From Alphaproteobacteria bacterium (GTDB lineage Bacteria > Pseudomonadota > Alphaproteobacteria > Rhodobacterales > Rhodobacteraceae): DNA of 64,000 nucleotides. The translations under genes and the position numbers were made by a program. Positions 48,090-64,000 of the stretch are shown piece by piece. The stretch lies in contig JAAAPD010000034.1 of the NCBI GenBank assembly GCA_009908505.1, forward strand, positions 1,430 to 65,429. The letters run 5' to 3'. The first letter of the stretch is position 1; each line of letters opens with the position of its first letter. A model generated the notes under the pieces. The model was not told the DNA's origin. It searched no databases and saw only the letters and a program-made list of their open reading frames with translations.

Positions 48090-51288
<3,199 letters not shown>

Positions 51289-51313: not shown

Positions 51314-51337
51314 AACGGCGCCCCTCGGGGCGCCGTT
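51314..51337. terminator. Bidirectional terminator-like hairpin between katG and eutC
   Basis: AACGGCGCCC-ctcg-GGGCGCCGTT with T-rich flanks on both strands. Confidence 0.7.
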
Positions 51338-51339
51338 CT

Positions 51340-52323
51340 TCATGTGCGGATGATCTGGCCCGCCTTGGGCAGGCTGGCCCGGACATGGCTGGCGATGGCC
51401 GTGTCCTGTGCCCCGGTGCCGGTCAGGTCGCAGATCGTGATATCGCTGTCGTCGATCCTTCCCGAAGCCGCGCCGGTGATGATCTGCCCCAGTTCCGGCG
51501 GCATGCCCTTCACGAGGCCCGCCGCGCGCGCCGCTTCCAATTCGCCCGAAACCTCGCATTGGCTGACCCGGTCGCAGACGTAGAGATCGGCCTTGGTGAG
51601 CGCGTTAGGGTCGATCTCGTTCTTGCCTTCCTGGTCCGACCCCATGGCGGTGACATGCAGGCCGGGATGCAGCCAATCGGCCATCAGCACCGGATCGCGG
51701 GCCGGGGTCGTGGTCACGACCAGTTGGGAATGCGCCAAAAGGTCAGCGGCATCGGTCATCACCTCGGCCTCAATGCCCAATGCCTGCCCCAGATCGGCAG
51801 CGCATTGTGCGGCCTTGGCCGGGTCGCGGCCATGGACGAGGACGCGCGTGAAAGGCCGGACCAGATGTGCGGCCTGCATTTGCAGTCGCGCCTGCACGCC
51901 GGTGCCGATCACGCCGGCGGTGTCCACCTGTTTCGGGGCGAGGTGCCGCGCGGCAACCGCGCCGGCGGCGGCCGTGCGGATATCGGTCAGGTAGCCATTG
52001 TCGAGATAGACCGCCTCGACCAGCCCCGTCTTGGCGGAGAACAGGATCATCAGCCCGTTTAGGCTGGGCAGGCCCAGTTCGGGATTGTCGAAAAAGCCCG
52101 GGCTGACCTTGATCGCGAAGCTGTCGAAGCCCTGGATATAGGCGGTTTTCACGTCCACTTCACCATTGGCATCGGCCATGTCCATGGACAGGATCGGCGG
52201 CATCACCACCTCGTCTCCGGCCAGCGCGGCGAAGGCGCGTTCGATCACGGCGACCGTTGTCAGGTCCAGCTGCACGGCGTCCTTCAGCTCGGCCTCGGTG
52301 ACGATCTGGATGTCATGGCCCAT
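51340..52323 (-). CDS. eutC: Cyclodeaminase / mu-crystallin family, EutC-like
   Basis: FAIKVSPGFFDNP, LTDIRTAAAGA, GTGVQARLQ and DLTGTGAQD. Confidence 0.8.
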   Translation of the reverse strand: MGHDIQIVTEAELKDAVQLDLTTVAVIERAFAALAGDEVVMPPILSMDMADANGEVDVKTAYIQGFDSFAIKVSPGFFDNPELGLPSLNGLMILFSAKTGLVEAVYLDNGYLTDIRTAAAGAVAARHLAPKQVDTAGVIGTGVQARLQMQAAHLVRPFTRVLVHGRDPAKAAQCAADLGQALGIEAEVMTDAADLLAHSQLVVTTTPARDPVLMADWLHPGLHVTAMGSDQEGKNEIDPNALTKADLYVCDRVSQCEVSGELEAARAAGLVKGMPPELGQIITGAASGRIDDSDITICDLTGTGAQDTAIASHVRASLPKAGQIIRT

Positions 52324-53317
52324 AGGACTTGCCTTTCACGATGATCTCGCCCAGCCGGATATCCTCGCCCGCCATGATGCGATGGAACATGCCCATATCC
52401 GGATTGCGCCCGGTGATGATGGTCGCCGTTGGCCCGTTGGGGGTGAATTTCCCGGACAGGCAGGCGGCCAGCCCCACCACGCAGGCGCCTTCGGCCACGA
52501 TCCGGTCTTCGTAGAAAAGCACCTGCATGGCGTGGTAGATTTCTTCTTCGGTGACCAGCAGGGTGTCGTCCAGCAAATCCCGGCACAGCGGAAAGGACAG
52601 CTTGTTGGCCATACCGATCCCGCCGCCCAGGCTGTCGGCAAGGCTGGGCACCTCTTCGACCTCGACAGGAAGGCCCGCCGCGATCGATGCCTTCATGGCC
52701 GCGCCGCGTTCCATGGAGATCCCGATCACCCGGATATCGGGTTTGATCGCCTTGGCCGCCAACGCCACGCCCGCCGCCAAACCACCGCCCGACAGGGGGA
52801 TCAAAAGGGTGTCCAGATCGGGCCGCGCCTCTAGCAATTCCAGCCCGATCGTGCCTTGCCCGGCGATCACGCGCGGATCATCGAAGGGCGAGATCTCGAC
52901 CAGCCCCTCTTGTTCCACCAGGCGCAGGCTTTCGGCCAGCGCATCGTCCTGGCTTTGGCCACAGATGCGCACCTCGCCGCCCAAGGCCTTGATCCCGTCT
53001 ACCTTGGCCCGTGGCACCAGCTCGGACATACAGATCACCGCGCGTATGCCCCGCCGCGCGGCGGCATAGGCCACGCCGCGCCCATGATTGCCGGTCGAAC
53101 AGCAGATCACGCCCGTCGTACCCTCGGGCAGCGCCATCAGCGCATTCATCGCCCCGCGCAGCTTGAACGCGCCGATGGGCTGCATGTTCTCCAGTTTCAG
53201 AAGGAAGTCCTGCCCCGTCTCGGCCGCCATGAAGGGCGAGGGGACCAATGGTGTCGCATCGGCGACGCCGTGCAGCACGCGGCGGGCGGCAAGGATATCT
53301 GCAAGGGCCAGTGTCAC
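52313..53317 (-). CDS. eutB: PLP-dependent dehydratase, EutB-like (threonine dehydratase family)
   Basis: KLENMQPIGAFKLRGA, STGNHG, PLSGGGL and SLADSLGGGIG; GTG start. Confidence 0.82.
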   Translation of the reverse strand: MTLALADILAARRVLHGVADATPLVPSPFMAAETGQDFLLKLENMQPIGAFKLRGAMNALMALPEGTTGVICCSTGNHGRGVAYAAARRGIRAVICMSELVPRAKVDGIKALGGEVRICGQSQDDALAESLRLVEQEGLVEISPFDDPRVIAGQGTIGLELLEARPDLDTLLIPLSGGGLAAGVALAAKAIKPDIRVIGISMERGAAMKASIAAGLPVEVEEVPSLADSLGGGIGMANKLSFPLCRDLLDDTLLVTEEEIYHAMQVLFYEDRIVAEGACVVGLAACLSGKFTPNGPTATIITGRNPDMGMFHRIMAGEDIRLGEIIVKGKSYGP

Positions 53318-53355
53318 TGCCCCAGATCACCGCGCCGCCCGGCCCGTTTCAAGCC

Positions 53356-54237
53356 CTAAACCATCATGTTGCGGGGCTCGCCGATCAGTTCGGCGTAATG
53401 CGCCAGGAATCGCGCCGCGTCGGCCCCGTTGATCACGCGGTGATCGTAGGACAGGTCCAGCGGCACCATCGGCACCGGACGCGGCGTGTCGCCGTCCCAG
53501 ACCGTGACGGTTTCGGTCCGGGTGATACCAAGGATCGCGACCTCGGGCGGGTTGACGATGGGGGTGAAGGCCGTGCCGCCGATGCCGCCCAGATTGGTGA
53601 TGGTCATGGAGGCACCGCCCATTTCATCGGGTCCGATCTTGCGGGTCTGCGCCCGCGCCGCAAGGTCGGTGATTTCCGCCCCGATCTGCCACAGCCCCTT
53701 GGTGTCCGCATCGCGGATCACCGGGACCATCAGGCCGTGTGGCGTGTCCACGGCGATACCGATATGGACATAGTTTTTGAGCACCAGCGTTTCGCCATCA
53801 GGCGTGAGCGAGGCATTGAAACGGGGATAGGCACGCAGGGACCGGGCCAGCGCGGCGACGTGAAAGGCCAGCGCGGTCAGCTTGACGCCGCGCGACTGGG
53901 CCTCGGGCTTGAGCGACTTGCGGAAGGCCTCGATCGCGCTGACTTCGGCGCGGTCGTGATGGGTCACCGCCGGAATGAGGGCCTGCGCGGCGGCAAGATT
54001 TTTCGCCGCCACCTGCGCAAAGCGGCTCATCGGTTCCTCGGTCACCGGTCCATATTGGCTATGGTCCACGTCCCAGTAGGAAGTGTCGCCACCGCCCCCG
54101 GAGGACGCCGGCGCGCTGCCGGTGATGTCCTCGGGGCCGATCGTGGTGCGACCGAGGCGCTTGGCCAGCGCGTCTATATCCACGTCATTGTCCCGTGCAA
54201 GGCGGCGGGTCGAGGGGCTGGCGATGATGTCCGACAT
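53356..54237 (-). CDS. 2-oxoacid dehydrogenase E2 catalytic subunit lacking lipoyl domains
   Basis: PSBD-like IASPSTRRLAR at the N-terminus; TITNLGGIG; catalytic SYDHRVING. Confidence 0.88.
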   Translation of the reverse strand: MSDIIASPSTRRLARDNDVDIDALAKRLGRTTIGPEDITGSAPASSGGGGDTSYWDVDHSQYGPVTEEPMSRFAQVAAKNLAAAQALIPAVTHHDRAEVSAIEAFRKSLKPEAQSRGVKLTALAFHVAALARSLRAYPRFNASLTPDGETLVLKNYVHIGIAVDTPHGLMVPVIRDADTKGLWQIGAEITDLAARAQTRKIGPDEMGGASMTITNLGGIGGTAFTPIVNPPEVAILGITRTETVTVWDGDTPRPVPMVPLDLSYDHRVINGADAARFLAHYAELIGEPRNMMV

Positions 54238-54246
54238 ATCCGCCCC

Positions 54247-55671
54247 CTACCAACTGGCCGAGATATACTGGGTTTCCATGAACTCCAGCATGCCCTCGTG
54301 GCCACCCTCGCGGCCAAGGCCCGATTGCTTGACGCCGCCAAAGGGCGCGGCAGGGTCGCTGACCAGCCCCCGATTGAGGCCGACCATGCCGTATTCCAGC
54401 CGCTCGCAGACCTGCATGGCGCGCTTGAAATCCTCGGAAAAGACATAGGCAACCAGCCCGTATTCCGTGTCATTGGCGCGGGTGATCACCTCGTCCTGGT
54501 CCTTGAAGGTCTGGATCGCGGCGACGGGGCCGAAGATTTCATCCTTCACGCATTCCGCGTTCTCGGACACGTTCGACAGGACCGTGGGCGGGTAGAAGTA
54601 TCCCTTGCCATTGGGCGTGCTGCCGCCGCATTCGACCGATGCGCCCTTGGCCACGGCGTCGGCCACGAACTCGGCCACCTTGTCGCGGGTGTCGGCATTG
54701 ACCAGCGGGCCGACATCCACCGATGGGTCGGTGCCATCGCCGACGTTGAGCGCGGCCATGCGTTCGGTCAGGCGCTTGGTGAACTCCTCGGCAACGTCTT
54801 CATGCACGTAGATGCGGTTGGCGGCGGTGCAAGCCTCGCCCAGGTTGCGCATCTTGGCCAGCATGGTGCCCTCGATGGCGGTGTCCATGTCGGCATCCTC
54901 GAAGACGATACAGGGCGCATTGCCGCCCAGCTCCATGGCCGGTTTCAGCACCTGGTCGGCGGCACCCTTCAGGAGCTTGCGGCCAACCCCGGTCGATCCG
55001 GTGAAGCTGACGACGCGCACGCGCGGATCATGCAGCATGTGATCTACCAGCGCACCGGTGCGGCGCGAGGGCAGGACGTTCACAAGGCCCGCAGGCACGC
55101 CCGCCTCTTCCAGCAGGGGCATCAGGGCCAGCATGGTGAGCGGGGTTTCCGAGGCCGGCTTGATGATGACACCGCAGCCCGCGGCCAGCGCCGGGGCGAT
55201 CTTGCGGGTGCCCATGGCCGCCGGGTAGTTCCAGGGCGTGACCAGCACGGCCAACCCCGCGGGCTTGTGCTGCACCACGATGCGGGCCCCGGAGGCGGGC
55301 GCATGGGTGATCATGCCGTCGGCGCGCACGGCCTCTTCGGCGAACCAGCGGAAGAATTCGGCGGCATAGGTCGCCTCGCCCTTGGCATCGGTGCCCGCCT
55401 TGCCGTTTTCCAGCGTGATCAGGTGGGCGAAGTGATCGAGCCGCGCGGTCATCAACTCCCACGCCTTGCGCAGCACTTCGGACCGTTCGCGCGGGGTGCG
55501 CGCGGCCCAGTCGGTCATGGCGGCCTCGGCGGCGTCCAGCGCCGCATCGGCATCGGCGATATCGGCCGAGGCGACCGAGGCAAGCACCTCTTCCGTCGCC
55601 GGGTTGATCACGTCGAAACGGTCGCCCGTCTTGTGCCATTCGCCGTTGATGTAGAGATCGGTGTAGTCCAT
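54247..55671 (-). CDS. NAD(P)-dependent aldehyde dehydrogenase, succinate-semialdehyde dehydrogenase-like
   Basis: TPWNYP, FTGSTGVG, ELGGNAP, GEACTA, EIFGP and PFGGVKQSGLGREG. Start ATG 55671 with GGAG RBS. Confidence 0.92.
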   Translation of the reverse strand: MDYTDLYINGEWHKTGDRFDVINPATEEVLASVASADIADADAALDAAEAAMTDWAARTPRERSEVLRKAWELMTARLDHFAHLITLENGKAGTDAKGEATYAAEFFRWFAEEAVRADGMITHAPASGARIVVQHKPAGLAVLVTPWNYPAAMGTRKIAPALAAGCGVIIKPASETPLTMLALMPLLEEAGVPAGLVNVLPSRRTGALVDHMLHDPRVRVVSFTGSTGVGRKLLKGAADQVLKPAMELGGNAPCIVFEDADMDTAIEGTMLAKMRNLGEACTAANRIYVHEDVAEEFTKRLTERMAALNVGDGTDPSVDVGPLVNADTRDKVAEFVADAVAKGASVECGGSTPNGKGYFYPPTVLSNVSENAECVKDEIFGPVAAIQTFKDQDEVITRANDTEYGLVAYVFSEDFKRAMQVCERLEYGMVGLNRGLVSDPAAPFGGVKQSGLGREGGHEGMLEFMETQYISASW

Positions 55672-55685
55672 GTCGGTCTCCATTG

Positions 55686-57002
55686 TCAGAGCAGATGGCG
55701 AAGCGGTTGCTCCACCCGGCCTGCGAAGTCGGAAAGAAGCTGGATCGCGGAAGTGGCGTCCATCCGGGACGGCGAGCATTCCAGCGTGATCGTCAGCCCG
55801 GTGCCATTCGCCGTCAGCGTCAGAACCGGGGTGGCCTCGCCGCCCATTTCGACGCCGCATAGGCGCGTGCCGCGCAGATCGCGCAGGATCAGGGTGGGGG
55901 CCTCTTCGGTTTCGGTGGCGGCCGACAGAACCCGGCTCGCGGGCAGGGCATAGGTAGTCGCCTGTCCATGCCGTTCCACGGCGACGGGGCCGGGCACAGG
56001 CATCGAGGAGGCGGCAAGCGCTGCCAGGATCGCATCCGCATCGGTCAGGCCATGGGCCTCCGCCGCCCAGGCGGCAAAGCCCGGCACACCATCCTCGGCG
56101 ATTTCAGCGACAAGCCTGCGGCTTGCGGTTCCAGCCTCTGCCGCTGGTGCGGCGGCAGGCAGGCTGCGCAGCGTTTCCAGGTCGCTGACGTGATAGGGCT
56201 GCGGATAGCCCGCCTCGGCCAGGCGGCCCAGGTCGAGCCCCTGTTCCAGCGCCAGGCGCCGCGCCTTCGGCGACGCCAGGATGCGCCCACCCGTGGGCTG
56301 CGGGGGCGCTGCAGGTGCGGTGGGGGCAGGCTTGGCCTCGGGCTCGGGGTCGGCCTTTGCCGGTTCCGCCTGCGCGCTGGGTGCCGCGGCAGGGGCCGCG
56401 GCAGTCACCGACCGGGCGACCGGGCTGGCCGGGGCCGCGTCGCTGATAACCGCCACCGGGTCGCCCACCGGGACCTCTTCACCGGCCTGGGCCAGTGTCG
56501 CGGCGAGATAACCGTCGCGGCCCGCCTCGACCTCCATGGTGCTCTTGTCGGTTTCGACCTCGAACAGGACATCGGTGGCGGAGACCGCATCGCCCGGCGC
56601 TTTCTGCCAGCTGACCAGCAGTCCGGTATCTTGCGCCATGCCAAGCTGTGGCATAGTCACGCTATGGCCGTCGGGAAGGTCATCGGCCGGGGCCTCTGCC
56701 GCGGGGGCCGGGGCCGTTTCGGCAGGCGCGTCATCCTCGGCGCTGTCGCTGATCCGGGCGATCACGGCGCCCACGGGCACATCGTCGCCCTCATCCGCCG
56801 TCACGCCTGTCAGGTAGCCCGCCGCCTGCGCCTCGACCTCCATCGTGGCCTTGTCGGTTTCCACTTCGAACAGGGCATCCCCCTTGGCGACCTCGTCACC
56901 GGGGGATTTGAGCCAGGACACGAGCTTGCCCGCATCCTGAGCCATGCCCAGCTGAGGCATCGTCACGTCATGCCGCGTGACTGTCTGTTTGTCACGCTGC
57001 AT
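55686..57002 (-). CDS. E2-like lipoyl carrier: two lipoyl domains + PSBD + degenerate catalytic domain
   Basis: VETDKATMEVEA and VETDKSTMEVEA; ILASPKARRLA; C-terminus ends PLRHLL but has no DHR motif. Confidence 0.85.
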   Translation of the reverse strand: MQRDKQTVTRHDVTMPQLGMAQDAGKLVSWLKSPGDEVAKGDALFEVETDKATMEVEAQAAGYLTGVTADEGDDVPVGAVIARISDSAEDDAPAETAPAPAAEAPADDLPDGHSVTMPQLGMAQDTGLLVSWQKAPGDAVSATDVLFEVETDKSTMEVEAGRDGYLAATLAQAGEEVPVGDPVAVISDAAPASPVARSVTAAAPAAAPSAQAEPAKADPEPEAKPAPTAPAAPPQPTGGRILASPKARRLALEQGLDLGRLAEAGYPQPYHVSDLETLRSLPAAAPAAEAGTASRRLVAEIAEDGVPGFAAWAAEAHGLTDADAILAALAASSMPVPGPVAVERHGQATTYALPASRVLSAATETEEAPTLILRDLRGTRLCGVEMGGEATPVLTLTANGTGLTITLECSPSRMDATSAIQLLSDFAGRVEQPLRHLL

Positions 57003-57993
57003 GAATCATCTCTCCTGAACACAGCTTGCGGGCGTTTTCGGCCACGCCTTCGGGCGTCGGCACGGTGATGTCCTCCAAGGCCGGCGAGAAGGGCACCGGC
57101 ACATCCATCGCCCCCATGCGCAGAACCGGCGCATCCAGGTGATAGAATGCCTTTTCATTCAGGCGGCTGGCGATTTCCGAGGTGACGCCATAACTTTGGT
57201 GGCCCTCGTCGATGACGATGGCGCGGCTGGTCTTCTTGACGCTCTCGATCAGGGTTTTCTCGTCCAGCGGCACGATAGTGCGCGGGTCGATGACCTCGGC
57301 CCCGATCCCCTCCTGGCCGAGCATCTCGGCGGCCTTCTCGGCCACCTGCACCATCGAGGACGTGGCAATCAGCGAAATGTCCTTGCCCTCGCGCTTCACG
57401 TTGGCCTCGCCGAAGGGGATCAGGAATTCCTCTTCCGGCACCGGGGCCTTGTCCTGGTACATCAGCTTGTCTTCGAATATCACGACCGGGTTGTTGTCGC
57501 GGATCGCCGTCTTCATCAGGCCCTTTGCCTCGTAGGCCGAGGACGGCATTGCGACCTTGAGCCCCGGAATATGCGCGACAAGCGCCTGCAGCGACTGCGA
57601 ATGCTGCGCCGCCGAGCGGCGCGTCGCCCCGAGGTTGGTGCGCAGGACCATCGGCACGGACAACTTGCCGCCCGACATGTAGTGCTGCTTGGCCGCCTGG
57701 TTGCACAGTTGATCCATGACCAGGTAGAGGAAATCGCCGAACATCAGGTCCACGATGGGGCGCGCACCGGTCATGGCGGCCCCCACGGCCAGACCGACGA
57801 AGCCCGGCTCGGCGATGGGGGTATCGATGACACGTGCCGTACCGAACTCCTCGACCAGGCCCGACAGGACCTTGAAGGGCGTGCCGGCCTCGGCCACGTC
57901 CTCGCCCAGCAGGAAAACGGTTTCATCGCGGCGCATTTCCTCGGCGATCGCTTCGTTCACGGCCTGGGACAGGGTAATCTCTCGCATCTTCAT
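56992..57993 (-). CDS. TPP-dependent dehydrogenase E1 beta (AcoB-like)
   Basis: LGEDV, DTPIAE, MFGDF, HSQSL and EVIDPRTIVPLD. Confidence 0.92.
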   Translation of the reverse strand: MKMREITLSQAVNEAIAEEMRRDETVFLLGEDVAEAGTPFKVLSGLVEEFGTARVIDTPIAEPGFVGLAVGAAMTGARPIVDLMFGDFLYLVMDQLCNQAAKQHYMSGGKLSVPMVLRTNLGATRRSAAQHSQSLQALVAHIPGLKVAMPSSAYEAKGLMKTAIRDNNPVVIFEDKLMYQDKAPVPEEEFLIPFGEANVKREGKDISLIATSSMVQVAEKAAEMLGQEGIGAEVIDPRTIVPLDEKTLIESVKKTSRAIVIDEGHQSYGVTSEIASRLNEKAFYHLDAPVLRMGAMDVPVPFSPALEDITVPTPEGVAENARKLCSGEMIHAA

Positions 57994-57999
57994 CTCTCC

Positions 58000-58977
58000 T
58001 CAGTCCGCGTAGACATGCATGTCGACTTCGGACACATCGGGGTAGTTGGCGGCCTCGGCATAGGCGACAGCCTCGGTGGCGTCGGTCTCGATCTCGGTGT
58101 TCATCGCCTCGATCTCGTCCTCGCTGGCGATGCCCTGTTCGACCAGCCACCCGCGGAAGCGCACGATCGGGTCGCGATTTTCCTTCCAGTCCTTTTCCTC
58201 GTCCTTGGACCGGTAATATTCGCGGTTGATGTCGCCGACGTGGTGGCCGTGATAGCGATAGGTTTCTAGCTCGATGAAGAACGGGCCTTCTCCCTTGCGG
58301 CAGCGCGCGACCAGCTTCTGCGTCAGCTCGTTGACCGCCAGAACGTCCTGCCCGTCGACCTTGAAGGCCTCGATGCCAAAGGCCTCGGCCCGCGCGGTTA
58401 TGGACCCGGCGGCGATCTCCTCGGTCTTGGTGTATTCCGAATAGCCGTTGTTCTCGCAGGCATAGATCACCGGCAGGTTCCACAGGGCGGCCATGTTCAT
58501 GACCTCGTATAGAAGGCCCTGAGCCGTGGCCCCGTCGCCGAAGAAACACACGGTCACGTCATCGGCGCCCTGCAGTTTCGAGCGCAGAGCCGAGCCCGTG
58601 GCGATCCCCATCGAGCCGCCGACGATGGCATTGGCGCCCAGGTTGCCATGGCTCTGGTCGGCGATGTGCATGGACCCGCCCTTGCCGCGGCAATAGCCCT
58701 CTTCCTTGCCCAGAAGCTCGCAGAACATCTGCTTGAACTCGGCCCCCTTGGCGACGCAATGCCCGTGGCCCCGGTGGGTCGATGTGATGCGGTCGTCGTC
58801 CGTGAGGGCCTCGCAGATGCCGACGGCGACCGCTTCCTCGCCGGAATACATATGGGTCAGGCCGGGCATCTTGGCCGACAGGTACAGCTGGTTGGCATTG
58901 TCCTCGAAGGTGCGGATGCGCACCATCTGGCGATACATGCGCAGGTAGTCTTCGGTATTTGTCTTGGCCTTTGCCAT
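58000..58977 (-). CDS. TPP-dependent dehydrogenase E1 alpha (AcoA-like)
   Basis: STHRGHGH, GKGGSMH, TPP motif FGDGA..ENN and TYRYHGHH. Confidence 0.92.
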   Translation of the reverse strand: MAKAKTNTEDYLRMYRQMVRIRTFEDNANQLYLSAKMPGLTHMYSGEEAVAVGICEALTDDDRITSTHRGHGHCVAKGAEFKQMFCELLGKEEGYCRGKGGSMHIADQSHGNLGANAIVGGSMGIATGSALRSKLQGADDVTVCFFGDGATAQGLLYEVMNMAALWNLPVIYACENNGYSEYTKTEEIAAGSITARAEAFGIEAFKVDGQDVLAVNELTQKLVARCRKGEGPFFIELETYRYHGHHVGDINREYYRSKDEEKDWKENRDPIVRFRGWLVEQGIASEDEIEAMNTEIETDATEAVAYAEAANYPDVSEVDMHVYAD

Positions 58978-59073
58978 GGTGGGTGTCCTTTGCGGGGCGG
59001 CGCGTATCCCGGGGGCGGCGCCGCGACTATGCGTAACGGGCGAAGGAGGCGCGCGGCCCCCTTCGCCGTTGGC

Positions 59074-60372
59074 TCAGTAGCGGTTCGCGATCGGCAGATC
59101 CTCGGCCGGGAACAGGCTGATCACCTCGCAGCCGGTTTCCGTCACGACCACCTCTTCCTCGATCCGCGCGGCGGAGTAGCCGTCGGCGGCGGGGCAGTAG
59201 GTTTCCAGTGCGAAGACCATGCCGGTCTGGATTTCCATCGGGTGATCCAGGCTGACCGCGCGGCTGATGATCGGCCGCTCGTGCAGCGCAAGTCCCAGCC
59301 CGTGGCCGAATTGCAGGCCGAAGGCGGCGTCCTCGCTCGGGAAGCCGAATTCCTCGGCCTTGGGCCACAGCTTGGCGACCTGGTCGGTGGTGACACCCGG
59401 CTTGATCGCCGCGATCGAGGCGTCGATCCATTCGCGGGCCTTTACGTAGGCGTCGTTCTGCGCCGGGGTGGCCCGGCCGATGTTGAAGGTCCGGTAATAG
59501 CAGGTCCGGTAGCCCTGGTAGGATTGCAGGATGTCGAAGAACGCCTGGTCCCCGGGCCGGAACAGCCGGTCGGTGAAGTTGTGCGGATGCGGGTTGCAGC
59601 GTTCGCCGGAAATGGCGTTGATCGCTTCCACGTCGTCCGAGCCCATCTCGTAGAGCATCTTATTGGACAGCGCGACGATGTCGTTCTCGCGCACGCCCGG
59701 CTTCAACTCTTCGTAGATCATGTGGTAGACGCCATCGACCATGGAGGCGGCTTGCGTCAGCAACTGGATTTCATCCCAGTTCTTGATCTCGCGTGCGGCA
59801 AGCATGATCTGCTGCCCGTCGACCACGTGCAGCCCCTCTTCCTGGAGCGCATGGAACATGGCCGTTTCGGCATAATCGACGCCCACGGGCATGTCGGCCA
59901 TGCCGGCCTCCTTGATCAGGCGGGCGATGTCCTTGGCGTATTTCTTCATCAGGCCGAATTCCGGCGGAATCGTGCCGCGCATGCCGACGACCCCGGCCAG
60001 GCAGTGATCGGGTTCCAGCCAGTCGGAATAGAGCTTGTGATGCATCGCGGCCGAACCGAAATCCCACACGTAGGGGGAATCGTCGCCGGTCAGCAGGCAG
60101 AAACGGCACATCTTGTCCCGTTCCCATTCGCCGATCTTGGTGGCGCTGACGTAGCGGATGTTGTTGACGTCGAACAGCAGCAGGGTGCCCGCATCCGAAT
60201 TCTGAAGCGCCTGCCGTGTACGGGCAAGGCGATAGCGGCGCAGGCGGTCATGGTCGATCCGCCGTTCGAAATCCACGGACATATGGCCCGAGGCGGGCAG
60301 GCGGTCGCGCCATTCCCAGTTCGGTTCCAGGTCCTGCGGGGTCAGCATGTTGGGCAGTAGTGCGCGTGACAT
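59074..60372 (-). CDS. M24 (pita-bread) family hydrolase with atypical metal ligands
   Basis: Creatinase-like N-domain; FFDI, FGHGLGL, ALET and RIEEEV; YRTCYYRT where GYxSDxTRT is usual. Confidence 0.85.
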   Translation of the reverse strand: MSRALLPNMLTPQDLEPNWEWRDRLPASGHMSVDFERRIDHDRLRRYRLARTRQALQNSDAGTLLLFDVNNIRYVSATKIGEWERDKMCRFCLLTGDDSPYVWDFGSAAMHHKLYSDWLEPDHCLAGVVGMRGTIPPEFGLMKKYAKDIARLIKEAGMADMPVGVDYAETAMFHALQEEGLHVVDGQQIMLAAREIKNWDEIQLLTQAASMVDGVYHMIYEELKPGVRENDIVALSNKMLYEMGSDDVEAINAISGERCNPHPHNFTDRLFRPGDQAFFDILQSYQGYRTCYYRTFNIGRATPAQNDAYVKAREWIDASIAAIKPGVTTDQVAKLWPKAEEFGFPSEDAAFGLQFGHGLGLALHERPIISRAVSLDHPMEIQTGMVFALETYCPAADGYSAARIEEEVVVTETGCEVISLFPAEDLPIANRY

Positions 60373-60437
60373 GGGAAAACTCCTTTCGGGCGCGTCTGCG
60401 CGCGCCCGGTTGCGTTGAAAAATGGGGGGGTGGGGCC

Positions 60438-61247
60438 CTACTTGGTCACCCAGCCACCGTCGATCGAGATCATCTGGCCGGTCATGTAGTCGCTGTCGTC
60501 CGAGGCCAGGAACGAGGCCGTCCCGGTGATGTCGTCGGGGTAGGAAACGCGCTTGATCACCAGGTTGTTCGCGACGATGTCGTCATAGGCCTGGCCTTCG
60601 CGTTCCTTGAAGCCGATGTCGACCAGGTCCTTGTCCAGCTGTTCCCAAAGCGGCGTGACCACGACGCCCGGCGCATAGCCGTTCACGGTGATGTTGTGTT
60701 CGGCCAGCCCCAGCGCGCCACATTCAGTCAGCGCAAGGCAGCCGTATTTCGAGGTGCAGTAGACGGTGACATCAACCAGCGGCTTGCGGCTGGCGATCGA
60801 GCCGACATTGATCAGCTTGTAGGGATGATCCTCCATCGGCCCTTGCGCGATCATCTCGCGGGCGACCTCTTGCATGCCCAACCACATCGCCTTGGTGTTC
60901 ACGTTCATGATCATGTCCCAGTTGGCTTCATCGATATCCATGAAGAACCGGGGCTTGTTCAGGCCGGCATTGAACAGGCCGACATTGATGGACCCGAACG
61001 CCTCGACGCAGGCGGCGACGGCGGCGGCGTTGTCCTCGCGCTTGGTCACATCCATCTTGACCGCGATGGCCTGGCCGTTGCCGGCCGCGTTGATGCCATC
61101 GGCGACCTTCTGCGCCTCGTCGAGATCGAGATCGCCAACGCACACATTGGCGCCCTGGGCCGCGAAGGCCTCGGCATTGGCGGCGCCCATGCCGCGCGCG
61201 GCACCGGTGATCAGGATGTTCTTACCTTTCAGGCGATTGGGGTCCAT
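60438..61247 (-). CDS. SDR oxidoreductase (polyol/acetoin dehydrogenase-like, probably NAD-dependent)
   Basis: TGAARGMG, acidic GDLD, FNAG, YCTSK and PGVVVTPLW. Confidence 0.88.
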   Translation of the reverse strand: MDPNRLKGKNILITGAARGMGAANAEAFAAQGANVCVGDLDLDEAQKVADGINAAGNGQAIAVKMDVTKREDNAAAVAACVEAFGSINVGLFNAGLNKPRFFMDIDEANWDMIMNVNTKAMWLGMQEVAREMIAQGPMEDHPYKLINVGSIASRKPLVDVTVYCTSKYGCLALTECGALGLAEHNITVNGYAPGVVVTPLWEQLDKDLVDIGFKEREGQAYDDIVANNLVIKRVSYPDDITGTASFLASDDSDYMTGQMISIDGGWVTK

Positions 61248-61271
61248 TGTCTTTCCTCCCTGGGTGACGGT

Positions 61272-63098
61272 CTAACTGTCTGGTTTTCGCAGGATGTCGC
61301 TGGCGCGGGCCTGGACCCGTGCCAATGCGTCACGCGGGGTGACGATCCCGCGCAGCATGTCGTGAAGTTCGTGGCCGCAAATGCCGATTATGTCAGAGAT
61401 CTGAGGGATGGGCGGGCGCGGCCAGAATTGCAGCTCGTCGCGCCAGGACATCTGATCGACCAGTTCGAAGATGGGCGACAAGCGGCGCACCTCGGGGTCG
61501 GCGCCAACCGAATAACGCGGCGCGGTGCGGCTGCCGTTCTGGGCATAGAGCTTTTGCGCCCCGGGCGAGGTGAAGGCGACCAGCGCCTCGGCGGCCTCTT
61601 CGACCCGGTCCTCGGCCAGGTTGGAGGGGATGCACAGAACATAGCCGCCCACCGGTGCGATCGGCACGCCCTCGGGGCCGTGCGGGTGCGGCAGGTAGCC
61701 CGTGTTGCCATGGGCCGAACAGCTGGCATCCAACTCGAAATACGGTGCCAGCAGCGTGTAGCCATAGGCCATGGCGACCTTGCCCTCGGCATAGGGCCGG
61801 ACCCGTTCGTACCAGGACATCGACAGGATGTCGGGCGGCGAGAACTGCATCAGTTGCATCAGGTAGTCGGCCGCCGCATGGGCCCGGTCGGTATCGAAGC
61901 AGGCCGTGAATCCCCCCTCGGCCAGGTGATCGGCGTCAAAGCCCCCGGCAATGGCCGGCAGGTCGATGATCGGCTGGCCGAAGGCGGCGCAGGTCATCAT
62001 GAAAGTGTGGCCCAGCGCGGTGCCGCGGGCCGCGTTCCAGGCCACGCCGTAGCGCCCCTTGCGGGGAACGTGCAGATGGCGGGCGGCCTCGATCACGGCG
62101 TCCGTGGTGGCGGGCGGCTCCAGCCCTTCGTGCGCGAACCAATCCTTGCGGTAGAACATCAGTTCCGGCGTGGTCTGGCTGGGCACGCCGTAAGGCACGC
62201 CATCCCAATGGGCCGCGCGCCAGCCGGCGGTGTGAAAATCGCTGGGATCCAGCCGGTTCACATCCATGACCTCGCCCAGCGGGCGGATCACGCCCTGTTC
62301 CACGAACTCGCCCAGCCAGGGCAGGTCGACGGCGATCAGGTCATAGCGGCTTTTCGCGCGGGAGGCATTGCGCAGCGCTTCTTCGCGCAGGCGGTCGATG
62401 GAAAAGGCCCGCTGGTGAATGCCCGTGCCGATGATCTGTTCGAATTGCCGCTTGAGCGTCTCCATCACCATGAAAGTCGGGTCACCGTGCACGAGGATCC
62501 GCAACCCGCCGGGCAGCTTCAGCGGCTGGGGCAGGGCGCTGGGCGGGGCTATGGCGGCAAGGCCAGGCTGGTAGGAGCCTCCGAAATAATAGTCACTGTC
62601 GCCGGCATCGCTGTCGCGGCGCAGCAGGGTTGCCCGCGCCATTCGGTCTACCCGGTCGGCCAACTGGTGGAAACTGGCCAGAAGCTGCGGGCTGGGATGC
62701 AGGGAAAAGCTCTTGCCGGTCTTGGTGCGCGGGCGCTGTTCGATCAACCCCGCCTCGCGCAGATCGCCCAGCTTGCGCGTGGCGGTGGCATAGGGCACCC
62801 CCGACGCGGCCACCATGGACGAGGGCGAGATCACCCGGCCTTCGAGATGGCCCCGCAACAGGTGCAGGATCATGTTGAGATGCGGGTTCGGCGTGTTGGG
62901 GTCGAGCGCGGCGTCGATCTCGACGCAGAAATCCTGCAGGAAGTGCACGACGCGTTCCAACTCGGCGCCGGAGTCCATGGCGGACATGGTTTCAGCCGCA
63001 GCAACGGCGGAATGTCCGGAATGGATGGTTTTCGCGTCGGGGTGCTGCATGGCTCGGTCGGTTCGGGGTGAAACGGGGCGTCGCTTCGATTCGGGCAT
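61272..63098 (-). CDS. wHTH-solute-binding-protein fusion; probable cytoplasmic transcriptional regulator
   Basis: No signal peptide. HTH region SGVPYATATRKLGDLREAGLIEQ, then family-1 SBP motifs YDLIAVD.PW, YGVP and LMFYRKDWF. Start ATG 63098 with GAGGAG RBS. Confidence 0.8.
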   Translation of the reverse strand: MPESKRRPVSPRTDRAMQHPDAKTIHSGHSAVAAAETMSAMDSGAELERVVHFLQDFCVEIDAALDPNTPNPHLNMILHLLRGHLEGRVISPSSMVAASGVPYATATRKLGDLREAGLIEQRPRTKTGKSFSLHPSPQLLASFHQLADRVDRMARATLLRRDSDAGDSDYYFGGSYQPGLAAIAPPSALPQPLKLPGGLRILVHGDPTFMVMETLKRQFEQIIGTGIHQRAFSIDRLREEALRNASRAKSRYDLIAVDLPWLGEFVEQGVIRPLGEVMDVNRLDPSDFHTAGWRAAHWDGVPYGVPSQTTPELMFYRKDWFAHEGLEPPATTDAVIEAARHLHVPRKGRYGVAWNAARGTALGHTFMMTCAAFGQPIIDLPAIAGGFDADHLAEGGFTACFDTDRAHAAADYLMQLMQFSPPDILSMSWYERVRPYAEGKVAMAYGYTLLAPYFELDASCSAHGNTGYLPHPHGPEGVPIAPVGGYVLCIPSNLAEDRVEEAAEALVAFTSPGAQKLYAQNGSRTAPRYSVGADPEVRRLSPIFELVDQMSWRDELQFWPRPPIPQISDIIGICGHELHDMLRGIVTPRDALARVQARASDILRKPDS

Positions 63099-63308
63099 CG
63101 CCACTCTCCTCAAAATGTTCAATTCGGGCTGAATGCAGTATGCGGAAATAATCCAATACGGATAGAGAAACATCCAAAATGAACTTATTGGCAGATCACA
63201 AGGCGCCGAGAATCACGCGTGATAAGGCAGGGATTGCGCCGGGTGTCGTCCCGGGCTGGGAGGACAGCCGCAATCCGCCAAAGAACATCCAATGGGAGGA
63301 CCCAGGAA

Positions 63309-64000
63309 ATGAAGAAGACCATGAAGTTCGCCTTGGCGTGCTCGACCGCGATGGTCGGCTCTGCCGCCATCGCCGAGACCATGACCATCGGCATCACCCA
63401 GAACAATGTGGGCGTCGACAGCTACCAGACGACCTATGAGCAGGCCTTCATCGCCGCAGCCGAAGCCAATGCCGATGTCGAAGTCGTCGTTCTGGACGCC
63501 GGTGGGGACGTGGCCCGCCAGATCGCCCAGATGGAGGATCTGATCCAGCAGCAAGTCGATGCGATCATCATCTGGCCGACCAATGGCGAGGCGGTCATCC
63601 CCGCCGTGCGCCAGGCCCACCAGGCCGATATCCCGGTGATCGTCACCAACTCCAACATCGCCGAGCAGGGCTTCGACTTCGTCGCCTCGTTCTCTGGTCC
63701 GGACAACATCACCCAGGGCGCCCGGTCCGCCGAGATCATGTGCGACCGCTTCAAGGACATGGGCATCGAAGACGAGGCGAAGGTCGTGCACATCACCGGC
63801 CAGCCGGGCTACACCACCGCCATCGAGCGCGCCCAGGGCTTCAACGACCGCCTGCCGGAAGTCTGCCCCAACGTCGAGCAGATCGACCAGCAGCCCGGCG
63901 ACTGGAACCGCGAAAAATCGCAGCAGGTCATGGAAGCCTTCCTTGTCAAGTATGACGATATCGACGGCGTCTATTCCGGCGATGACAACATGGGCGTCGG
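63309..64000 (+). CDS. Sugar-type ABC transporter substrate-binding protein (RbsB-like), partial, runs off the window
   Basis: My translation: MKKTMKFALACSTAMVGSAAIA|ETMTIG..LDAGGDVARQIAQMEDLIQQQVDAIIIWP..AIPVIVTN..GDWNREK..DIDGVYSGDDNMG. No stop before 64000, so it is absent from the ORF track. GGAG RBS. Confidence 0.9.
   Translation, partial: MKKTMKFALACSTAMVGSAAIAETMTIGITQNNVGVDSYQTTYEQAFIAAAEANADVEVVVLDAGGDVARQIAQMEDLIQQQVDAIIIWPTNGEAVIPAVRQAHQADIPVIVTNSNIAEQGFDFVASFSGPDNITQGARSAEIMCDRFKDMGIEDEAKVVHITGQPGYTTAIERAQGFNDRLPEVCPNVEQIDQQPGDWNREKSQQVMEAFLVKYDDIDGVYSGDDNMGV

Follow-up and report, generated by a model that had tools for sequence, protein, structure and literature searches.

A mobile alphaproteobacterial gene island, probably for catabolism of a sugar-like compound, with a eutB-eutC pair inserted in one lineage

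A sugar-type importer, a complex resembling acetoin dehydrogenase and two genes resembling eutB and eutC of ectoine catabolism stand together at the right-hand end of a 64,000-nucleotide stretch of a Rhodobacteraceae genome (GenBank assembly GCA_009908505.1, contig JAAAPD010000034.1). This stretch, here called the window, corresponds to C63:1430-65429 of an assembly of 85 contigs that comprises 2.99 Mb, has 65% G+C and is 92% complete. Genes were called from a six-frame listing of open reading frames (ORFs) combined with Pfam and NCBIfam scans of the window proteins. Below, the features are given in the direction in which the main operon is read, with family scores in bits and family cut-offs in brackets.

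63219-64000, plus strand: CUT2 sugar-type periplasmic binding protein (RbsB-like), cut by the window end; Peripla_BP_4, 176 bits.
61272-63173, minus strand: fusion of a winged helix-turn-helix domain to a solute-binding protein (wHTH-SBP), likely a one-component regulator, probable start Met26 at 63098; SBP_bac_1, 82 bits, residues 269-541.
60438-61247, minus strand: short-chain dehydrogenase/reductase (SDR) of the vicinal-diol type; adh_short, 153 bits.
59074-60372, minus strand: M24 pita-bread enzyme with a creatinase-type N-domain; Peptidase_M24, 126 bits.
58000-58977, minus strand: thiamine pyrophosphate (TPP)-dependent E1 alpha; E1_dh, 280 bits.
56992-57993, minus strand: E1 beta; Transket_pyr and Transketolase_C; NF006667, 393 bits (cut-off 321).
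55686-57002, minus strand: double-lipoyl carrier of 438 aa; two Biotin_lipoyl stretches.
54247-55683, minus strand: GabD-like aldehyde dehydrogenase (ALDH); Aldedh, 543 bits; TIGR01780, 553 bits (cut-off 646).
53356-54237, minus strand: lipoyl-less E2 core; 2-oxoacid_dh, 257 bits.
52313-53317, minus strand: EutB-like dehydratase dependent on pyridoxal phosphate (PLP); NF005680, 437.8 bits (cut-off 413).
51340-52323, minus strand: EutC-like protein of the ornithine-cyclodeaminase/imine-reductase family; NF006141, 472.9 bits (cut-off 408).
51314-51337, minus strand: terminator, a G+C-rich hairpin followed by a T-rich run, read from the sequence and unlisted by the consensus scan.

The ten genes from the wHTH-SBP fusion to the EutC-like protein are all encoded on the minus strand, separated by 2-100 nt, and form a tight operon in the ORF listing. 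An earlier note on this DNA had described SDR, M24, E1 alpha, E1 beta, lipoyl, ALDH, E2, eutB-like and eutC-like genes in one orientation, accompanied by an HTH-SBP regulator and a divergent RbsB-like binding protein, and the Pfam and NCBIfam matches, SBP_bac_1 and Peripla_BP_4 among them, confirm all of these. To the right of the window we found the rest of the sugar-type importer operon and no ectoine genes: an SDR, two permeases, a double ATPase, a dehydrogenase resembling 3-hydroxyisobutyrate dehydrogenase (HIBADH) and ThuA, followed by unrelated genes. At the left, the ten-gene operon ends at a hairpin terminator that it has in common with the convergent katG, and oxyR and a nudix gene lie beyond. 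This gene content agrees with the note's picture of an acetoin-dehydrogenase-like complex and an ALDH joined to a sugar-type transporter. The cluster, which we refer to as the island, had also been called uncharacterised, and indeed full-text literature searches returned neither a paper on the island nor one that places an M24 enzyme in sugar catabolism.

Relatives of the M24 enzyme occur in at least 573 genome stretches, and the island proteins were mapped onto the best 80 of these loci, with 10-kb flanks. The M24 proteins of these 80 loci are 88-96% identical to that of the window and come from Rhodobacterales, Hyphomicrobiales (Hoeflea, Roseibium, Pseudovibrio, Martelella) and Rhodospirillales. 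The SDR gene lies directly upstream of the M24 gene in every island, with an SDR identity of 62-95% across islands, while the wHTH-SBP gene is present in 72 of the 80 and the importer, its binding protein included, in 65. In 58 of the 80, E1 alpha, E1 beta, the lipoyl protein, ALDH and the E2 core directly follow the M24 gene, which is the form seen in the window (variant A); six of these 58 loci, as well as a Phaeobacter plasmid, carry lpdA after the E2 gene. The importer operon is closed by ThuA and HIBADH wherever the 10-kb flank extends that far.

The island is widespread and horizontally mobile. It is plasmid-borne in Phaeobacter inhibens, P. gallaeciensis, P. piscinae, Tritonibacter mobilis, Marinovum algicola and Pacificitalea, and in Boseongicola it adjoins a phage-type integrase. 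A Streptomyces plasmid carries LacI, a solute-binding protein, a HIBADH-like enzyme, M24 (62% identical), an enzyme like succinate-semialdehyde dehydrogenase (SSADH), a fused E1 and E2; the functional core of the island therefore crosses phyla. The actinobacterial contexts in Paenarthrobacter and Rhodococcus were uninformative. In a metagenome-assembled genome (MAG) of Roseibium the island stands alongside an ABC system of the HAAT type. Tranquillimonas rosea has two M24-E1-lipoyl-ALDH-E2 modules on one 4.08-Mb contig (L003 and L004), one of them with a CUT2 importer, the second copy being accompanied by LacI, a GFO/IDH/MocA oxidoreductase, OsmC, an aldo-keto reductase and a tripartite ATP-independent periplasmic (TRAP) transporter.

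An alternative lower branch, variant B, is found in 19 of the 80 islands. Here an M24 enzyme 93-95% identical to that of the window occurs with the same SDR, regulator and importer, and the E1/ALDH/E2 block is replaced. The M24 gene is followed by a KduD-like SDR (319 bits, cut-off 339), then by a second SDR, and then by a flavin mononucleotide (FMN) dehydrogenase resembling LldD, the L-lactate dehydrogenase. The second SDR scores 283-285 bits against the structures 8XWK, 8Y11 and 8Y4J (285 to 8Y11), all of which are the Herbaspirillum L-2-keto-3-deoxyfuconate (L-KDF) 4-dehydrogenase (PMC11199699). In 9 of the 19, HIBADH and ThuA give way to a FAH-family hydrolase with 402 bits to 2,4-didehydro-3-deoxy-L-rhamnonate hydrolase (NF053535). 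This LRA6/FucG-like hydrolase lies at the end of the importer operon (islands L008, L010, L012, L015, L019, L036, L040, L056 and L074), and five other variant-B islands retain HIBADH and ThuA, a mixture which indicates that the end modules of both operons have been swapped independently.

Non-phosphorylative route 3 converts 2-keto-3-deoxy sugar acids to pyruvate and L-lactate (PMC11199699), and, judged by homology, the extra enzymes of variant B together are the lower half of this route. As in the route 3 pathway for L-fucose and L-rhamnose (FucF/LRA5, FucG/LRA6 and L-lactate dehydrogenase), variant B has close homologues of the 4-dehydrogenase and of the hydrolase, an LldD-like enzyme and a CUT2-type importer, and these enzymes come after the same importer, regulator, SDR and M24 as in variant A. 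The window, in contrast, has E1/ALDH/E2 instead, and contains neither the 4-dehydrogenase nor the diketo-hydrolase; moreover, no island has the known dehydratase or lactonase, M24 being found in their place. Among the conserved genes of the 80 islands there is no acid-sugar dehydratase of the enolase or IlvD/EDD type, no lactonase, and no aminotransferase, deaminase or amine-handling gene. The deoxysugar-acid branch of variant B thus favours a substrate that is a sugar, a deoxysugar or a polyol. A sulfonate (2,3-dihydroxypropane-1-sulfonate, DHPS, or sulfolactate) was also considered, since HIBADH-like and GabD-like enzymes serve in sulfolactaldehyde metabolism too. It was not kept as the leading idea: no gene for a sulfite exporter or for another desulfonation function is conserved across the 80 islands, and variant B speaks for deoxysugar acids instead. 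Pantothenate, autoinducer 2 (AI-2), cyclitols and betaine-lipid head groups were dropped as unsupported.

The binding protein at 63219 finds its best solved-structure matches in ribose-binding proteins and in two CUT2 binding proteins of Mycobacterium, the latter reportedly solved with xylitol and threitol. The sensor domain of the wHTH-SBP fusion matches 5IAI and binding proteins for sorbitol, trehalose and maltose, and its N-terminal segment shows a marginal resemblance to IclR/MarR (E 0.026-0.14). We place its start at Met26 (63098) because its relatives are 601-605 aa long, and it is likely a cytoplasmic one-component regulator. The SDR at 60438-61247 is closest, among solved proteins, to L-2,3-butanediol dehydrogenase/diacetyl reductase and to sorbitol dehydrogenase; for both SDRs of the island, that of the window and that of the importer operon, butanediol/acetoin and sorbitol dehydrogenases are the nearest relatives. 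The HIBADH-like enzyme is nearest to hydroxybutyrate/succinic-semialdehyde reductases and to tartronate-semialdehyde reductase.

The M24 enzyme is the most conserved protein of the island. DddP is its best named relative in NCBIfam (118.6 bits, cut-off 600) and also its best match in the PDB (77 bits); against EutD (TIGR02993) it scores 65 bits where 613 is the cut-off. It is not EutD and forms a highly conserved family of its own, which speaks against the earlier proposal that it processes an amide or amino moiety alongside EutB and EutC. The metal-ligand positions read D-C-H-E-E, Cys291 taking the place of the second metal-binding Asp of the M24 fold, and they are invariant in 89 of 89 homologues, including actinobacterial ones (down to 52% identity). 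Their spacing agrees with the prolidase pattern.

DddP, a lyase of dimethylsulfoniopropionate (DMSP), removes a proton adjacent to a carboxylate, then eliminates the beta substituent, and so provides a precedent for beta-elimination at such a position. The island enzyme has the same full-length architecture, a creatinase-type N-domain followed by a pita-bread domain. It differs in scoring below the equivalog cut-off, in departing from the canonical D-D-H-E-E site, and in a setting that would be sugar catabolism rather than DMSP. By analogy, the elimination carried out by DddP may share its chemical logic with that of an acid-sugar dehydratase. Because neither variant has a classical acid-sugar dehydratase or lactonase, we regard the M24 enzyme as the best candidate for a dehydratase or ring-opening step that the other island genes cannot supply.

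E1 alpha is closest to the human-type pyruvate dehydrogenase (PDH) E1 alpha, at 231 bits, and scores 124-139 bits against branched-chain 2-oxoacid dehydrogenase (BCKDH). The carrier has two lipoyl domains, both with ETDK and with AcoC as their best NCBIfam match, an E3/E1-binding segment, and a C-terminal region of about 150 aa of unassigned fold. This region (window 55686-56150), which may be a degenerate E2 core or a docking domain, has no Pfam match, and a BLAST comparison with the E2 core revealed no similarity. In some relatives (L069) the carrier comprises 323 aa and has one lipoyl domain. The separate E2 core combines a short binding segment with an acyltransferase domain that bears a DHR motif; the E2 function is therefore split over two genes, and there is no E3 in the window. 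The ALDH gene, whose true start lies 2 nt past the preceding stop codon, sits between the lipoyl carrier and E2 core genes, and the best solved relative of its product is GabD of E. coli (3JZ4, 466 bits). It is present only in islands with E1/E2, and this restriction, along with its nested position, favours an acetoin-dehydrogenase-like cleavage in variant A.

With the acetoin dehydrogenase system (AcoA/AcoB/AcoC/AcoL), the island has in common TPP-dependent E1 alpha and beta of the PDH branch, lipoyl-dependent acyl transfer to coenzyme A (CoA), neighbouring SDRs of the diol type, and an aldehyde oxidation that would fit acyloin cleavage. In the island, however, E2 is split, with carrier and core flanking the ALDH gene, and an E3 gene is part of the cluster in only 6 of 58 relatives and is missing from the window; the invariant M24, the HIBADH-like enzyme, ThuA, the sugar-type importer and regulator and the GabD-like character of the ALDH are further differences. 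A 4.7-kb contig of the same genome (C12:1-3740) holds a partial second lower module, made up of the 3' end of E1 beta and of genes for a lipoyl protein, an ALDH and an E2 core, which are respectively 58%, 89% and 73% identical to those of the window. The more conserved genes upstream of this partial copy have probably been collapsed in assembly, or the contig stems from a co-binned strain.

The EutB-like protein, in which the PLP lysine motif is present, also matches TIGR02991 (413.8 bits, cut-off 413.35), and the EutC-like protein reaches 446.7 bits with TIGR02992, under the cut-off of 471.65. The closest relative among the loci, from a Salibaculum MAG (L044), has island proteins 81-96% identical to ours and is collinear with the window from nudix-oxyR-katG to the E2 core. 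The only break in this collinearity is a segment of 2,021 bp (window 51341-53361) that has no counterpart in L044. Beyond the E2 stop codon, L044 has 20 nt, the hairpin aacggcgcccc...ggcgccgtt, and then katG, oxyR and the nudix gene; the window has 38 nt, eutB and eutC, and then the same hairpin. Reading of the sequence and a consensus scan found no terminator-like structure between E2 and eutB. The cassette therefore lies inside the transcription unit, and eutBC is most likely, from this layout, co-transcribed with the operon.

Downstream sequence extends over 8.3 kb or more in 48 variant-A islands, and none of these has a eutBC pair. The closest eutB-eutC pairs elsewhere, eight in number (EutC identity 72-78%), adjoin genes for an EutD-like M24 enzyme, an ssd-like ALDH and a class-III aminotransferase, and none of the eight has the island within 10 kb; homologues of the EutB-like protein in ectoine-type clusters are 66-82% identical. 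From these comparisons, the eutBC pair is best described as a recent, lineage-specific insertion of 2 kb that derives from an ectoine/hydroxyectoine-type cluster and lies outside the island pathway. The earlier note had spoken of ectoine genes grafted onto the cluster, and in the physical sense this stands, as the pair was inserted just before the terminator; the graft is local to one lineage, however, and brings no evidence of a role in the pathway. Apart from the window, L040 alone among the islands has a eutBC pair nearby; there the two genes run on the opposite strand and share an operon with genes for a class-III aminotransferase and an ALDH. No association emerges from 151 sampled genomes of the family: 32 have an EutC homologue and 26 the M24 gene, both systems occur in 7 against 5.4 expected by chance, and they share a contig in this genome only; a genome of the same genus has neither. 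Together with the absence of the pair from L044 and from all 48 comparable islands, this argues against the view that EutB and EutC belong to the pathway.

Known clusters for ectoine and hydroxyectoine (ehu/ueh-eutABCDE-asnC-ssd-atf with EnuR; PMC5924519) resemble the locus in having adjacent eutB and eutC in the same order, with an M24 enzyme and an SSADH-type ALDH nearby. They differ in that the locus is without EutA, EutD, EutE, Atf, EnuR and Ehu/Ueh, and in that its M24 and ALDH are part of the island and not of a eut set. EutABC has been proposed to convert hydroxyectoine to ectoine, a function that is biochemically untested according to the same review (PMC5924519). The earlier note had seen no EutE, aminotransferase or MocR gene and had named eutDE and atf just beyond the window as part of a result that would speak for ectoine. 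We found no eutD, eutE or atf on the whole 86-kb contig; the regulator is a wHTH-SBP protein and not the MocR-type EnuR, and the transporter is of the CUT2 type and not Ehu, Ueh or Tea. The best EutE match in the genome (TIGR02994) has 75 bits, on contig C35, against a cut-off of 403. The contig has no class-III aminotransferase, the best Atf match in the genome being 38% identical, and the genome has no close Ssd; in an assembly that is 92% complete, these absences are provisional. An orphan M24 gene resembling EutD/DoeA, at 593 bits (cut-off 613), is located at C66:67036-68253, where it is flanked by a PhoR-like kinase gene and unrelated genes and has no eut neighbours. As for the other neighbours of the island, katG (catalase-peroxidase) and the divergent OxyR-like LysR regulator occupy 48090-51288, directly to its left, and are syntenic in the closest relative.

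We favour the reading, with a probability of about 0.55, that the window contains one copy of a mobile catabolic island for a sugar-like compound, most likely a 6-deoxyhexose, a pentose, a polyol or the matching sugar acid, and that eutBC stands outside its pathway. The order of steps that we infer is as follows. The CUT2 ABC importer would bring the compound into the cell, where the cytoplasmic wHTH-SBP protein would sense it and turn on the divergent operons. Hydroxyl groups would then be oxidised by the diol-type SDRs and by the HIBADH-like dehydrogenase paired with ThuA. The M24 enzyme, with its D-C-H-E-E site, would most likely perform a beta-elimination or dehydration, as the analogy with DddP suggests, or alternatively a ring-opening hydrolysis. 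The resulting keto compound would be cleaved by the TPP-dependent E1, the acyl part passing to the double-lipoyl carrier and being transferred to CoA by the separate E2 core, while the GabD-like ALDH would oxidise the released aldehyde-acid and an E3 of the host would re-oxidise the lipoate. One may speculate, for example, that the 5-keto derivative of a 6-deoxy 2-keto-3-deoxy acid is cleaved to acetyl-CoA and 2,4-dioxobutanoate, which the ALDH would convert to oxaloacetate.

Several observations weigh against this reading. Both binding proteins are distant from their solved relatives (84-110 bits), and the dehydrogenases of the island outnumber the needs of any simple scheme. The resemblance of the M24 enzyme to DddP is weak (77-119 bits); we know of no dehydratase with the M24 fold, and the role given to the enzyme was reached by eliminating alternatives. 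By sequence, E1 alpha and beta are indistinguishable from a true 2-oxoacid dehydrogenase. Finally, eutBC lies within 10 kb of the island in 2 of 81 cases (here and in L040), which is above random placement. For the E1/E2 complex, the main alternative to acyloin cleavage is a plain oxidative decarboxylation of a 2-keto-3-deoxy acid, which would leave the ALDH without a role. In its fullest form, the sugar-catabolic reading would amount to an undescribed route in which a Cys-containing M24 enzyme replaces the acid-sugar dehydratase, an Aco-like complex yields an acyl-CoA and a C4-type aldehyde-acid, and the GabD-like ALDH delivers a central dicarboxylate, eutBC having been captured in one lineage; all of this taken together we put forward as a tentative proposal, with the odds rather against it.

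Among the other explanations, the one that survives best concerns the cassette itself, which may have kept a hydroxyectoine role together with the orphan EutD-like gene on C66, borrowing the promoter of the operon, or may be a neutral passenger en route to decay. That gene, with its 593 bits just short of the cut-off of 613, in a genome that is 92% complete, and the proposed, unproven, conversion of hydroxyectoine to ectoine by EutB/EutC (PMC5924519) give this some ground. Yet the assembly lacks EutE (best match 75 bits), a close Atf or Ssd, and an ectoine transporter beside the genes, and regulation by a sugar-type sensor is ill suited to such a role; we hold it to be possible and somewhat unlikely.

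It is improbable that the cassette has instead been recruited into the pathway. According to this idea, the EutB-like enzyme would deaminate a beta-hydroxy amino acid to a 2-oxoacid for E1/E2, or EutB and EutC would dehydroxylate an amino-acid-like side product, widening the range of substrates. The precise insertion before the terminator, the two intact frames, the full-length family matches and the PLP lysine motif speak for it, but the arrangement occurs once, no matching transporter or regulator accompanies it, and homologues of the pair always stand beside EutD, Atf and Ssd.

Plain use of acetoin or 2,3-butanediol, with the SDRs oxidising butanediol, E1/E2 converting acetoin to acetyl-CoA and acetaldehyde, and the ALDH forming acetate, would account for the nearest relatives of both SDRs, for the AcoC match of the lipoyl domains and for a logic of E1/E2 plus ALDH like that of AcoABC. 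It leaves no role, however, for M24, HIBADH, ThuA or the sugar-type importer and sensor; the ALDH is of the GabD and not the acetaldehyde type, in 19 islands the same upstream genes are joined to a deoxysugar-acid branch, and Pfam scans found no gene for a sigma-54 regulator of the AcoR type in the island, so that we consider this model very improbable.

Equally poor are the chances of the polyhydroxylated nitrogen-containing substrate that the earlier note had inferred, with M24, EutB and EutC processing its amide or amino part and the SDR, E1/E2 and ALDH its carbon skeleton: the genes are co-oriented and probably co-transcribed, EutB is above its NCBIfam cut-off, a eutBC pair is near the island in L040 too, and the non-peptidase M24 enzymes known to us act on zwitterionic nitrogen or sulfur solutes, but with eutBC absent from L044 and from 48 of 48 comparable islands, with no co-occurrence, and placed outside the pathway, the inference loses its basis, as nothing conserved that remains (no aminotransferase, deaminase or amine-handling gene) handles nitrogen and variant B has deoxysugar-acid enzymes.

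The locus calls for caution in annotation. Names in the style of the Prokaryotic Genome Annotation Pipeline (PGAP), such as 'hydroxyectoine utilization dehydratase EutB', 'Xaa-Pro peptidase', 'extracellular solute-binding protein' and 'succinate-semialdehyde dehydrogenase', would suggest ectoine or peptide metabolism, whereas the comparative evidence points to sugar catabolism instead. The eutBC cassette is a clean case of a two-gene module captured before an existing terminator, and the island offers a putative new reaction of the M24 fold as well as an unusual E2, divided into two parts that flank an ALDH gene. Being present in hundreds of marine and saline Alphaproteobacteria and moved by plasmids, the island probably targets an abundant sugar-like metabolite of algae or microbes that lacks an assigned bacterial sink.

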